Part shown: positions 25,220 through 31,454 of the stretch, one piece after another
How the letters are laid out: every line of letters begins with the position of its first letter
How positions within the stretch are numbered: the stretch's first letter is position 1
Origin: Abditibacteriaceae bacterium
GTDB lineage: Bacteria > Armatimonadota > Abditibacteriia > Abditibacteriales > Abditibacteriaceae
Assembly (NCBI GenBank): GCA_031372065.1
Contig: JANMKN010000219.1
Coordinates: 1-31,491, forward strand
DNA length: 31,491 nucleotides
Reading direction: 5' to 3'
Made by a program: the position numbers and the translations under genes
The notes under the pieces: model-generated
What the model was told of the DNA's origin: nothing
What the model saw: only the letters and a program-made list of their open reading frames with translations
Database searches by the model: none

Positions 25220-25256
25220 ATTTTTGTCGTTCTATAAAAAAGAGTTTTGGAGAATT

Positions 25257-27932
25257 ATGCATCTCTTTCGCATCGTCACAATTGTCTGTTTTTTGCTTTG
25301 CCTTTGCGCCACTGTTTTCGCGCAAGAGTTGCCGCAGTTCGATTTTTCGCGGCTCGGATTCGTAAGCCAATGGAACGCGGCGCATGATATTTCTAAAATC
25401 GAAAGCGGCGCCGAAGGCATGGTCATTTCGATTGGCGGCAACGACCCGTATACCTTCGGCCCGCCGCGCGATTATCCTGCCAATGTGCCGCTGTGGCTGA
25501 CGGTGCGTATGAAATCGGACACCGAAGGCGACACGCAAATTTTCTATTTTACCGATGGCCCGCGCGAAGAAAATTCGGTGCGTTTTACGGTGCCGCAAAA
25601 TCAATGGACAGAAAAGCGCATCGCCGTGCCGCCTTTAGCAAAAGGCACGCGCCTGCGCCTTGACCCGCCGGGCACCAAAGGCCAAGCGACGATTGCGTTC
25701 ATGCGTTTTTCGCCGCGCATTTTGCTGCAAGAACCAGCATGGCCGCGCCCGACAACGCCGGATGTTCAGCAAGGTGCTTATACACTGAAAAGCGGTAACT
25801 TAATAATCAAAAGCAATGCTCTATTTGGTCAGTTTACACTCGCAATCAATGGACAAGATATGGCGATAGGTCTAAATTGTCCGCAAATTGGCTACACAGT
25901 AAAAAATGGATTGCATTGGTTAGATTTTTCTCAAAAAAGGCACAACAAATGGAGTATGGAAACTGACGGCACTATAAGGATCAGACATTCAAAACAAGAC
26001 GAAGATGGTGCTTATTGGGGCTGGACTCAAACTTTCAAAGCGGGCAAATTACAGGGCACGATTGAAGTGCATTCAGAGGTTACGGTTAGTCAAAACCGCG
26101 AAATTGTTTTCTTGCCGATGCTCACTATTTTGCCCGGCGTCGGTTCGTTTGGCGAAAAGAAAACGCAGGCGATTTTTCCCGGTTTGGAATATCTGGATAA
26201 CGAGCCGAGCAGCAGCGAAGCCGATATTCGCGGGCCGCAATCGAAAAGACAAGTGTCAGATAGTGTAAAAAACACACTTCCGATGATGGCGGTGCAAAAC
26301 GGCGAGAATTATATCGGTTTGGCGTGGCGAGAAGACGAAAAAAATCCCGACAAATTCAGTGCGCTTTTCGATTCGCCGGATCGCCTTTTCGGTTCGGGCG
26401 GGCACGTTATGGGCCTGCTTTTTCCCGGTTCGGACGGCGAAAATCGCGTCGAAGGCAGCCTTTTGCCGTATCAGGGCGAAACGCTCAAAGCTGGCGTGCC
26501 GCTGACGTTGAACGCTCTCATTTTCGGCGGGAAAGGTGACAGCGCCGTTGATGCCGTGAAGCAATTTGTGGCGTGGCACGGCTTGCCGAAAATTCCCGAT
26601 GCGGGCACTTTTGAAAATTATAACGCGCTGGCCTCGGCGGGTTGGCTTGATTCCAAAATCCGCGAAGGAAATTTGTTTCGTCATGCGTTTTGGCCCGGTT
26701 TCGAGGCCAAAACTGCCGCTGATGCGCCACTTTTGATGGAATGGCTGGCGCAACAAAATTCGCCGCGCGCTGGGGAACTAAAAACCGTCGCACAAAGCGC
26801 TTTGGCGCAAGTGAAACCGCAAGATTATAATGCCTCCAACGTTTCGCACGTCACTTATCCCGTGGCGGCGTTGGTTTATGGAGGCGTCGAACAAAACGCC
26901 GCGCGCGCCGCGCAAAATGCGCGTAATTTGTTGAAGCGTTTTGATGAAAACAACCGCGTGCTTTATCAAAAGCGGCCCGATGGCGGCGACTTGGGCACCA
27001 CGCATTTCGCGCCCGATGCCAACGGTTTAACCGCGCAAGTTGTCGAGTCGCTTTTGGAAAACGCGTCATTTTCCGGCGAGCAGGATTTGATTGACGAAGG
27101 CCTCAAAAAACTGCGCGCTTTGGACAAATTTAGGAACACGGTGCCGCGCGGCGCGCAGACGTGGGAAGTGCCGCTACACACGCCGGATATTTTGGCTTCG
27201 GCGCATTTAGTAGCCGCTTACACGCGCGGCTACGAATTAACCGGCGAGGCGCACTTTTTGGAAATGGCGCGGCATTGGGCGTGGACGGGCGTGCCGTTTG
27301 TTTATTTGCGCAATCCGACAGATAAAAATGTCGGCGCGTATAGCACCATTGCCGTTTTGGGCGCGACGCAATGGGCCGCGCCGGTGTGGTTTGGTCAGCC
27401 TGTGCAATGGTGCGGTTTGGTTTACGCCGATGCGCTTTATCGCTTGGCGCCTTATGATCAAACTGGCCCGTGGAAAACGTTGGCCGATGGCATCACAGCG
27501 GCGGGCATTCAACACACATGGAAGCAAAAAGACAAAGAGCGCGTGGGCCTTTTGCCCGATTATTATTTGCTGCGCCCACAAATGAGCAGCGGCCCCGCAA
27601 TTAATCCCGGCACCATGCAGACCAATGCCGTGCGCTTGTTCAACAAACCGGCGCTCTATGATTTTCGTGTGCTAAGCCAAAGTGGTTTGCTCGTTCACGC
27701 GCCGGGCGCGATTAGCGAAGTCAAAGAAAGCAAAACCGGCGCGCAATTCAAAGTGATGGGCTGGACGGAAAAACCATATTTCGTTTTAATCAACGGCTTG
27801 AAAAGCACGCCACAAATCCGCATCAACAATCAAGCTGTGACATTAGCCGCGCCGCATCAATTCAACGCCGAAAAAGGCCGTTTGATCTTAAATTTGCAAG
27901 GTGCGCCGACGGTTGAAATTAGCACGAATTAA
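25257..27932 (+). CDS. Large secreted hypothetical protein, probably glycan-active (possible C-terminal helical-barrel domain)
   Basis: ATG 25257 with GGAG RBS and signal peptide; N-terminal LRLDPP beta-sandwich-like domain; PRGAQTWEVPLHTPDILASA, GYELTG...YL, PVQWCGLVYA. Confidence 0.8.
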   Translation: MHLFRIVTIVCFLLCLCATVFAQELPQFDFSRLGFVSQWNAAHDISKIESGAEGMVISIGGNDPYTFGPPRDYPANVPLWLTVRMKSDTEGDTQIFYFTDGPREENSVRFTVPQNQWTEKRIAVPPLAKGTRLRLDPPGTKGQATIAFMRFSPRILLQEPAWPRPTTPDVQQGAYTLKSGNLIIKSNALFGQFTLAINGQDMAIGLNCPQIGYTVKNGLHWLDFSQKRHNKWSMETDGTIRIRHSKQDEDGAYWGWTQTFKAGKLQGTIEVHSEVTVSQNREIVFLPMLTILPGVGSFGEKKTQAIFPGLEYLDNEPSSSEADIRGPQSKRQVSDSVKNTLPMMAVQNGENYIGLAWREDEKNPDKFSALFDSPDRLFGSGGHVMGLLFPGSDGENRVEGSLLPYQGETLKAGVPLTLNALIFGGKGDSAVDAVKQFVAWHGLPKIPDAGTFENYNALASAGWLDSKIREGNLFRHAFWPGFEAKTAADAPLLMEWLAQQNSPRAGELKTVAQSALAQVKPQDYNASNVSHVTYPVAALVYGGVEQNAARAAQNARNLLKRFDENNRVLYQKRPDGGDLGTTHFAPDANGLTAQVVESLLENASFSGEQDLIDEGLKKLRALDKFRNTVPRGAQTWEVPLHTPDILASAHLVAAYTRGYELTGEAHFLEMARHWAWTGVPFVYLRNPTDKNVGAYSTIAVLGATQWAAPVWFGQPVQWCGLVYADALYRLAPYDQTGPWKTLADGITAAGIQHTWKQKDKERVGLLPDYYLLRPQMSSGPAINPGTMQTNAVRLFNKPALYDFRVLSQSGLLVHAPGAISEVKESKTGAQFKVMGWTEKPYFVLINGLKSTPQIRINNQAVTLAAPHQFNAEKGRLILNLQGAPTVEISTN

Positions 27933-27941
27933 AAGCCCGCT

Positions 27942-28114
27942 CCTCGGCTAATTCGCGCTTTGGGTTTGCGCCTATCGGCCAAGGGCAAAAGTAAGATGCT
28001 GATTATCGGGGCTGCGATGAGAAAACTGTTGCATATTGCTTTCGGCGTTCTTAAAGGAGGGCCGAAAAATAAAAAAGACAAGAGGTCGTTTTACCCCTTG
28101 TCAACATAGTCTCT
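27942..28114 (+). mobile_element. IS110-family (IS621-like) remnant: transposase C-terminus plus right end
   Basis: Start-less frame 27933-28109 reads ...LIRALGLRLSAKGKSKMLIIGAAMRKLLHIAFGVLK..., typical of an IS110 transposase C-terminus. It ends in TTGTCAACATAGTCTCT (28098-28114), fused to a half attC. Confidence 0.8.
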
Positions 28115-28122
28115 TGTTGGGC
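28113..28122 (-). repeat. Half attC (R'' box and part of spacer only)
   Basis: CTTGTTGGGC is identical to the end of attC 28418-28427; the rest is replaced by the IS110-like right end. Confidence 0.75.
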
Positions 28123-28329
28123 AGCAAGTCGAAGCATTCGAGATTGAGCCGCCGCAGTGAGCGAACCCACGAGCTTGAAGTTGCGGCTGAACCACGTGAG
28201 CGAGTTGACGCGGTTCCACATCCAGCTACGCCACCAACTCAGCGTTGAACAAGCTCAGCAAAGCTGAGCTTGACCTTCAATTTCTGCTCAAGACGCTCAG
28301 CGAGCAGAAGCCGCGCGCTTGCGGGCCAA
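28116..28329 (-). other. ORF-less, highly structured gene cassette
   Basis: Ends are complementary (11/13) like other cassettes; carries the cassette leader GCGCGCGGCTT; no self-contained ORF in the track; several hairpins. Confidence 0.7.
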
Positions 28330-28427
28330 CGACCAAGCTCACCCGCCGCCGGAAGCGCAGAGACCGCAGCGAGGAACGAGCGTAGGGAACGAAGCTGTAG
28401 GCGGTCGGGTGCAGCGCCTTGTTGGGC
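28324..28427 (-). repeat. attC site (104 bp)
   Basis: Minus strand GCCCAAC aaggc GCTGCAC ... GTGAGC ttggtc GTTGGCC. Confidence 0.93.
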
Positions 28428-28777: not shown

Positions 28778-28881
28778 GCCCAACGACCAAGCTCACCCGC
28801 CGCCGGAAGCGCAGAGACCGCAGCGAGGAACGAGCGTAGGGAACGAAGCTGTAGGCGGTCGGGTGCAGCGCCTTGTTGGGC
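28778..28881 (-). repeat. attC site (104 bp)
   Basis: GCCCAAC...GTTGGGC; 28780-28881 is identical to 28326-28427. Confidence 0.93.
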
Positions 28882-29505: not shown

Positions 29506-29613
29506 GCCCAACGACCAAGCTCACCCGCCGCCGGAAGCCGGAGCGCAGTGGAGCGAGGCACGAGCGGAACGGAGCGCAGGCTGTAGGCGGTCGGGTGCAG
29601 CGCCTTGTTCTGT
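29506..29613 (-). repeat. attC site (108 bp), non-canonical R'' ACAGAAC
   Basis: ACAGAAC aaggc GCTGCAC ... GTGAGC ttggtc GTTGGGC. Confidence 0.92.
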
Positions 29614-30479: not shown

Positions 30480-30552
30480 ACAGAACGACTGAGTTCACCC
30501 GCCCCGCAAGGAGCCTGCGACTGTAGGGGTCGGGTGCAACGATTTGTTAGGC
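30480..30552 (-). repeat. attC site, short form (73 bp)
   Basis: GCCTAAC aaatc GTTGCAC ccgacccc...ggggcgg GTGAAC tcagtc GTTCTGT. Confidence 0.92.
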
Positions 30553-30770: not shown

Positions 30771-30872
30771 GCCTAACGATTAAGCTCACCCGCCGCCGGA
30801 AGCGCCAGAGTGAAGCGAGGAACGAGCGAAACGGCGGCGCTGTAGGCGGTCGGGTGCAGCGCCTTGTTAGCC
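30771..30872 (-). repeat. attC site (102 bp)
   Basis: GGCTAAC aaggc GCTGCAC ... GTGAGC ttaatc GTTAGGC. Confidence 0.93.
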
Positions 30873-31346: not shown

Positions 31347-31454
31347 GGCTAACGCCAAGCTCAGCCGCCGCCGCAGGTAGCGACCAAGCTAAAATTACCC
31401 GACACGCTTTAATTTGCCAGAGCTTCGGCGGTCGGTTGCAGCGCCTTGTTAGAC
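31347..31454 (-). repeat. attC site (108 bp), divergent central loop
   Basis: GTCTAAC aaggc GCTGCAA ccgaccgccg...cggcggcgg CTGAGC ttggc GTTAGCC. Confidence 0.9.

Follow-up and report, generated by a model that had tools for sequence, protein, structure and literature searches.

Which element closed the integron array found here, and how its last cassette lost most of its attC, are the questions raised by the window, which is the whole 31,491-nucleotide stretch analysed and the whole of contig C2 of an Abditibacteriaceae genome (G000; assembly GCA_031372065.1, contig JANMKN010000219.1). A first-pass annotation had described one IS110 element, inserted at a CT within the terminal attC and later stripped of its left part by deletion. 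The target stands, and deletion is still the simplest reading, but two elements are involved and not one: the remnant is, as judged from its sequence, a dead fusion of two different IS110-group elements (lineages A and B), each targeting another spot of the same attC. The features of the locus are as follows; R'', L' and attI are established box names, assigned here from position, and the label attI-like refers to position and layout alone.

25224..27932, plus strand: host gene, a 902-aa ORF without Pfam match; its stop codon abuts the remnant and it marks the distal end of the array
27931..27949, plus strand: possible third scrap, left arm of a terminator hairpin, 16/19 identical to a lineage-B right end in genome G002
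27944..28055, plus strand: lineage-A IS110 transposase C-terminal coding fragment, without start and without catalytic residues
28058..28114, plus strand: lineage-B IS110 right end, with left-donor arm ATAGTCT (28106-28112) and CT core (28113-28114)
28067..28102, minus strand: terminator-like hairpin (10 pairs) and T run within the right end (pattern match and fold, z -1.97)
28115..28122, minus strand: leftover of the terminal attC, comprising right target half TGTT (28115-28118) and R'' box (28116-28122)
28115..28330, minus strand: terminal cassette, 216 bp, without a clear ORF (three-frame translation) and with no complete attC of its own
28324..28427, minus strand: intact attC 1, with lineage-A core CT at 28338-28339 and lineage-B core CT at 28418-28419 (both read on the plus strand)
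28778..28881, minus strand: intact attC 2, both lineage-A and lineage-B targets present
29506..29613, minus strand: intact attC 3, both lineage-A and lineage-B targets present
30480..30552, minus strand: intact attC 4, short type, both targets mismatched
30771..30872, minus strand: intact attC 5
31347..31454, minus strand: intact attC 6, near the contig end

The remnant forms the distal end of an integron whose cassettes lie on the minus strand. Six intact attC-like repeats follow it within the window, and the window's end overlaps contig C351 by 141 exact bases. Past this overlap C351 carries five more attC sites, giving 11 intact attC in the joined array, together with an attI-like site and a full-length intI (C351:2964-3899; TIGR02249, 419 bits against a cut-off of 265) located beside the attC array on the opposite strand. 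A second, broken intI is found at C218:1-600; the region upstream of it shares 95% identity with the one upstream of the main intI. As annotated at first pass, GCAGCGCCTTGTT is kept in 5 of the 6 intact attC sites of the window, and the CT at 28113-28114, the TGTT and the R'' box are in register with the R''-proximal end of intact attC, the junction ATAGTCT-CT-TGTT corresponding to GCGC-CT-TGTTGGGC at 28414-28427. Three-frame translation of the terminal cassette (28115..28330) gave no clear ORF. Orthologues of the host gene are 79-85% identical in G001 and G002, and in G001 an unrelated convergent ORF directly follows the orthologue.

The start-less frame at 27933-28109 (plus strand) translates to ...KGKSKMLIIGAAMRKLLHIAFGVLK... 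and is indeed an IS110 transposase C-terminus: it matches positions 311-341, the last 31, of the IS110 model NF033542 (E 0.0043), a score far below the curated cut-off, as expected for a 31-residue piece. A Pfam search of the same frame returned nothing. Positions 27944-28055 are 94/112 identical to a full-length lineage-A copy in G018, with alignment scores of 152 against lineage A and 36-49 against lineage B, and the peptide is 84% identical to lineage A (DNA and protein) and 58% (protein) to lineage B. The adjoining stretch 28058-28118, consisting of 57 end bases and four target bases, is 60/61 identical to an intact lineage-B copy in G003, while 28058-28114 had no significant match among three lineage-A reference ends (p 0.7-0.9). 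Neither score, that of 28058-28118 or that of 27944-28055, was reached by any of 200 shuffles. The derivation of peptide and right end from one element, as first proposed, is not upheld by these identities. The reading frame stays open across the A/B joint and stops at 28107-28109. The stretch 27931-27949 might conceivably be a scrap of a third element: none of 200 shuffles matched the G002 lineage-B right end, which is of another end type, as well as it does, and four other references gave no match. The remnant cannot move by itself, because it holds no bridge RNA and no catalytic domain. A Logan contig from another assembler covers 27500-28119 without differences, although it may come from the sample of origin and is then not independent support. 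In the best-matching run, X1, the contig stops at 28119 and 28120-28327 are without cover.

The owner of the right end is found intact in the same-genus genome G003 as an element of 1,260 bases with an intact 340-codon gene, splitting an attC exactly at GCAGCGC-CT-TGTT. This left junction recurs in lineage-B copies with frameshifts in G002 and G006 and in a truncated copy in G011, and three further lineage-B left ends in G003 lie at the same site. The flanks of full-length copies restore the target GCAGCGC-CT-TGTT, already proposed from the window, and the guides of these copies spell it. The donor of lineage B is ATAGTCT-CT-CATA, distinct from that of lineage A and IS621. In a protein search of 401 genomes of the phylum, in which any match at E<=1e-40 occurred in 25/401 genomes, lineage B was limited to the host family. 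The left-junction pattern at 2 mismatches was, phylum-wide, as frequent in the control as in the signal; viral contigs gave 0 matches to the left junction, and a scan of genome contigs gave 4 loci, all of them copies already in the set.

Lineage A uses the other side of the attC. For its copies, 12 left and 10 right junctions listed sit at the L'-box CT, at the far end of the attC from R'', and its listed right ends are of the ACAGTAT, ACAGCAT or ACGGTAT type. Its relatives within G000, on contigs C109 and C45, both lie in attC at AAG-CT-CACCC in the L' box. The expectation that full-length relatives would occupy the R''-side CT is borne out for the owner of the right end and fails for the relatives of the coding fragment; tBLASTn with that fragment, the check proposed at first pass, would have led to the L'-box CT instead. 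On the plus strand the lineage-A site precedes the lineage-B site within the attC, which is the order of the window pieces. Double hits do occur: in G006 a single attC has a footprint of lineage A at L' together with a complete lineage-B element at its R''-side CT.

Several further copies deserve description. The C109 (2581-2038, minus strand) and C45 (11457-11740, plus strand) copies have internal deletions with the target loop still readable and have in common an extra stretch, placed at the same transposase codon; the C45 copy is also interrupted by an inverted-repeat element. A lineage-A copy on a metagenome contig (L032, 1259-1179, minus strand) is deleted from within the target loop to the right half of the target; the deletion endpoints share sequence, and a short left-end stub is left in an otherwise whole attC. 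Close lineage-A relatives in G009 (L007, L027), G016 (L009, L028, L110) and G012 (L019) lie at non-attC sites with guides altered to match, the G016 site being a palindromic repeat. At C211:2796 (plus strand) in G000 a lineage-B-type right end meets, at CT, the half of an attC that belongs to the lineage-A target, a hybrid that is either a cross-reaction between the lineages or a deletion between two similar ends. Finally, a long-type IS110 element in G008 (L014, contig C2 of that genome; 458 codons, own donor) splits an attC at the R''-side CT used by lineage B. It is about 25% identical to both lineages, its guide matches 14/15 (p 0.015), and its position in the tree is unsure (long branch).

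The non-coding ends of these elements are unequal, with 190 bases on the left and 62 on the right in lineage B (G003), and 208 and 37 in lineage A (G006). The left end had been named at first pass as the place for attC guides, and these are present there. The target loop of lineage B holds GCAGCGCC (8/9) and AACAAG (6/6) in all four left ends, so that its guides match the R''-side site at 14/15 in 4/4 left ends, with 0/200 shuffles per copy as good; against the L' site they are at chance level (p 0.15-0.93). The donor guide tracks the donor arm, which is ATAGTCT in two copies and ACAGTCT in one. Lineage-A guides match the L' site at p<=0.05 in 10/12 left ends, while in seven relatives with non-attC flanks the guides match their own flanks at 8-9/9 and neither attC site. 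Consensus folds give a two-stem layout, with target loop and then donor loop upstream of the transposase gene, and contain compensatory changes in 11/27 pairs of the lineage-B target loop (5 sequences, two of them identical) and in 15/33 pairs in lineage A (10 sequences). The lineage-A donor loop is closely like that of IS621. An Rfam search of the putative bridge-RNA regions matched no family. The left-end RNA is predicted to be a two-loop bridge RNA with guides to target and donor.

Membership of the IS110 rather than the IS1111 group, as first annotated, is supported by the longer left non-coding end, by the lack of sub-terminal inverted repeats (exact inverted matches between the two terminal 45-base stretches reach at most 6 bases in lineage B and 7 in lineage A) and by the transposase tree. 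Full-length A and B proteins match PF01548 and PF02371 above cut-off and conserve all of D11, E60, D102, D105 and S241. They are 46-47% identical to each other; identity to IS621 is 41% for B and 44-46% for A, that to ISEc11 is 25-27%, and the closest solved structures are those of IS621 and ISCro4 (PDB 8wt6, 9t56). In a quick tree of 52 rows, which holds no named attC-targeting IS1111 member, A, B and IS621 fall in one fork (24/52 rows, SH-aLRT 93), apart from a fork of ISEc11, IS5075 and three relatives (support 100). The plasmid hits listed likewise included no named attC-targeting member of the IS1111 group. The nearest tree relatives of lineage A have non-attC targets, and the nearest relative of lineage B combines an A-type donor with a left flank that is not attC. 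Forcing the nine A and B rows together was rejected (p-AU 2.7e-9; 28 rows, quick tree), with the groups named by target before the tree. By this test lineages A and B are not one clade, so that attC targeting arose at least twice and, given also the distant G008 element, probably three times. The origin of both pieces, both targets, the guide matches and the group membership are all read from sequence.

The first-pass annotation missed that such orphan right ends are a pattern across the genome and the family. A profile of the right ends of 14 relatives, taken on the element side, gave 20 hits in G000 at E<=5, against 1 in the reversed genome, and the target half TGTT follows 17 of the 20. G000 holds about 17-20 orphan right ends, each at a cassette end. 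No left end or other attC half was found near any of 16 examined (two had short flanks). The G000 assembly yielded no lineage-B left end and retains 17 perfect lineage-B targets; with its 410 contigs it may lack repeated full-length copies. Among 27 family genomes, the right-junction pattern gave 30 matches in 11 genomes (control 0) and the left-junction pattern 7 matches in 4 genomes at <=1 mismatch, with 4 more, unchecked, at 2 mismatches (control 2). The 18 right junctions in relatives comprise 3 full copies, 3 cut by contig ends and 12 orphans. Some of these orphans occur in genomes of 2-10 contigs, and in some relatives a piece of the transposase gene, or of the attC, survives to the left of the right end. 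Mirror cases, in which the left end is kept, are found in G011 and at G003:C172.

The orphan ends keep about 17-204 bases, and their left boundaries vary, often lying just outside the hairpin, as deletions would give. On the cassette strand, a strong hairpin plus T run is present at 16/20 orphan ends and in 10/150 random windows at a threshold of -14 kcal/mol (-7 kcal/mol was too lax, with 20/60 controls); as the hairpin belongs to the element end, its frequency is not independent evidence. In the window the hairpin proper is predicted at 28102-28077, facing the cassette transcript. Many capped cassettes have no intI in their vicinity and begin with an attI-like sequence that is one of a recurring set of three. 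At 3/5 tested loci the genes flanking the block are adjacent in one same-genus genome each, with gaps of about 57, 18 and 40 bases there, against about 2.0, 2.0 and 0.64 kb in G000; at the other two, C28 and C317, the flanks lie apart in all three relatives. Beside several capped cassettes, at C277:5360-6540 (plus strand) and C277:20495-19215 (minus strand), and also on C317, C28, C365 and C19, an attI-like site is followed by short tandem repeats and these by an ORF of about 235 codons, which has no Pfam match and points away from the cassette as intI would. These three parts together are possibly an integrase-free cassette platform. Two-gene capped cassettes adjoining orphan ends on C16 and C175 (both minus strand) resemble type II toxin-antitoxin pairs.

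The reading favoured here, with a probability of about 0.8, is RNA-guided insertion into attC followed by ordinary deletion of the left part, with cassettes of broken attC persisting and the hairpin perhaps kept as a terminator. Two IS110-group elements, each with a left-end bridge RNA, would have entered the attC at the distal end of the integron, both in antisense orientation relative to the cassettes. Lineage A would have taken the CT of the L' box and lineage B the CT adjoining R'', so that A preceded B on the plus strand. One deletion would then have fused the 3' end of lineage A's transposase gene to the terminal 57 bases of B with loss of the intervening DNA, and another would have cleared the whole stretch from the host gene up to the A fragment. 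The last cassette would be left with R'' only, unable to be excised by the integrase and so locked in place, and the hairpin could end the array transcript. The same history, repeated, would yield the other orphan ends, in which cassettes with broken attC stay. We infer the order of these events, deletion as their cause, the locking and the termination. Three observations sit uneasily with this account. Loss in the orphan ends is one-sided, where plain deletion predicts no such clean bias; the blocks whose flanking genes are neighbours in a relative (3/5 loci) need a separate placement step; and the terminal cassette has no clear ORF, so selection for a cassette gene cannot explain the window locus.

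The first two of these observations count in favour of a rival in which the recombinase itself makes or uses the orphan ends: their perfect left-donor arm and core could recombine with intact attC targets, given transposase and bridge RNA in trans, and so trim or swap cassettes, or blocks could have moved to new intergenic sites as partial or expanded circles. The one-sided loss of left ends (30 right- against 7 left-junction matches), the blocks between adjacent genes and the B-type right end on an A-site target half at C211 all fit such a role, and half-match recombination and re-inserted partial circles are described for IS621 and other IS110 elements in the available parts of 10.64898/2026.08.31.748434 and 10.64898/2026.08.14.744561. 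It is nevertheless considered unlikely, as the left boundaries are scattered and mostly without a CT core, the left target half expected from insertion of a circle or circular cassette is missing, and the proximal ends of scattered cassettes are integrase-type junctions with attI-like sites; moreover, several loci that keep the hairpin have a decayed donor arm, and the mirror cases keep the left end. Insertion of cassette circles into chromosomal donor sites was rejected in the same way, since the predicted left target half and core are not seen at the far end of the cassette. It is correspondingly doubtful that IS110-group recombinases form a second, integrase-independent cassette engine in this family, leaving or carrying orphan right ends as half-donor sites, capping cassettes, swapping or trimming them against intact attC, and helping to scatter blocks of end plus cassette between genes all over the chromosome.

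Less probable again is a single natural hybrid element, with an A transposase gene and a B right end, whose left part disappeared after one insertion. The frame does stay open through the joint to its stop, and the C211 hybrid indicates that ends can be exchanged, yet no full-length hybrid was present among the fetched copies, full or nearly full copies with a B end carry a B transposase, the joint lacks both the closing residues of A and the beginning of the B end, and the A-then-B order is that predicted by a double hit. Barely credible are an insertion of lineage A alone at L', its end set beside R'' by a deletion between the two CTs, and an assembly artefact: the site adjoining R'' does resemble the lineage-A donor, but the end is that of lineage B and unrelated to lineage-A ends, and the contig of another assembler runs through the joint unchanged. 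An interpretation based on the C109 and C45 copies, with the L' CT as the true target and the window joint as a later deletion, was dropped because the right end is that of lineage B.

The window remnant itself is dead, ordinary debris, and the value of the locus lies in its living relatives and in the capping pattern. Through these relatives attC targeting is extended from IS1111-group elements to IS621-like bridge recombinases, at two CT cores of one attC family, and the sister elements with other guides offer a natural set of reprogramming events. If capping is general, IS110 debris would be a main route by which cassettes become fixed chromosomal genes, invisible to attC-based searches. 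The intact G003 element makes it testable how attC insertion affects cassette excision and expression, for which the evidence is called limited in the available part of 10.1101/2024.02.09.579496.

Comparison with known systems places both lineages nearest to IS621 and ISCro4, with which they share the long left non-coding end, the order of target loop and donor loop, the CT core and the conserved catalytic residues; lineage A even has the donor arms of IS621. They differ in target, which for IS621 is given as REP elements in the accessible portion of PMC11208160 and for A and B is integron attC, and lineage B differs further in its own donor, ATAGTCT-CT-CATA, the window copy being a dead fusion. 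In the parts shown of the PMC11208160 supplements, two 9-base target words found no attC-like target. The literature searched, to which ISfinder and most subscription journals were external, gave no IS110-group element at attC, the named attC-targeting IS all belonging to the IS1111 group.

Two other systems resemble parts of this one. Group IIC-attC introns, in the excerpts available of PMC3001079, likewise invade the bottom strand of attC site-specifically, in an orientation opposed to the cassettes and mostly in last cassettes, but they are retroelements with a reverse transcriptase, and have no bridge RNA and no DEDD recombinase. CALIN and secondary-site cassettes (PMC4889954, in the portion available) are similar in that cassettes lie apart from intI in a genome that encodes intI. 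In contrast to these, most scattered blocks of G000 have no intact attC. They carry just an IS end and, proximally, an attI-like site, and would be missed by an attC-based search; genome-wide, G000 gave 19 attC hits on 6 contigs.

A functional parallel is the attC-targeting IS1111 group (ISPa21, ISPst6, ISKpn4 and ISPa25), which, going by the part of PMC11187229 at hand, inserts into attC guided by a seekRNA and antisense to the cassettes. Its insertions are reported near the attC 5' end in the available text of PMC3001079, the side used by lineage B, and its elements are proposed to immobilise cassettes in that of 10.1101/2024.02.09.579496. Lineage A, by contrast, inserts on the L' side, for which no such report was found in the literature searched. 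The IS1111 elements have sub-terminal inverted repeats of 11-13 bp and an RNA downstream of the gene (PMC11187229, same portion), whereas A and B lack such repeats and have the RNA upstream. Lineages A and B therefore act like the attC-targeting IS1111 group in their insertion into attC without being members of it.
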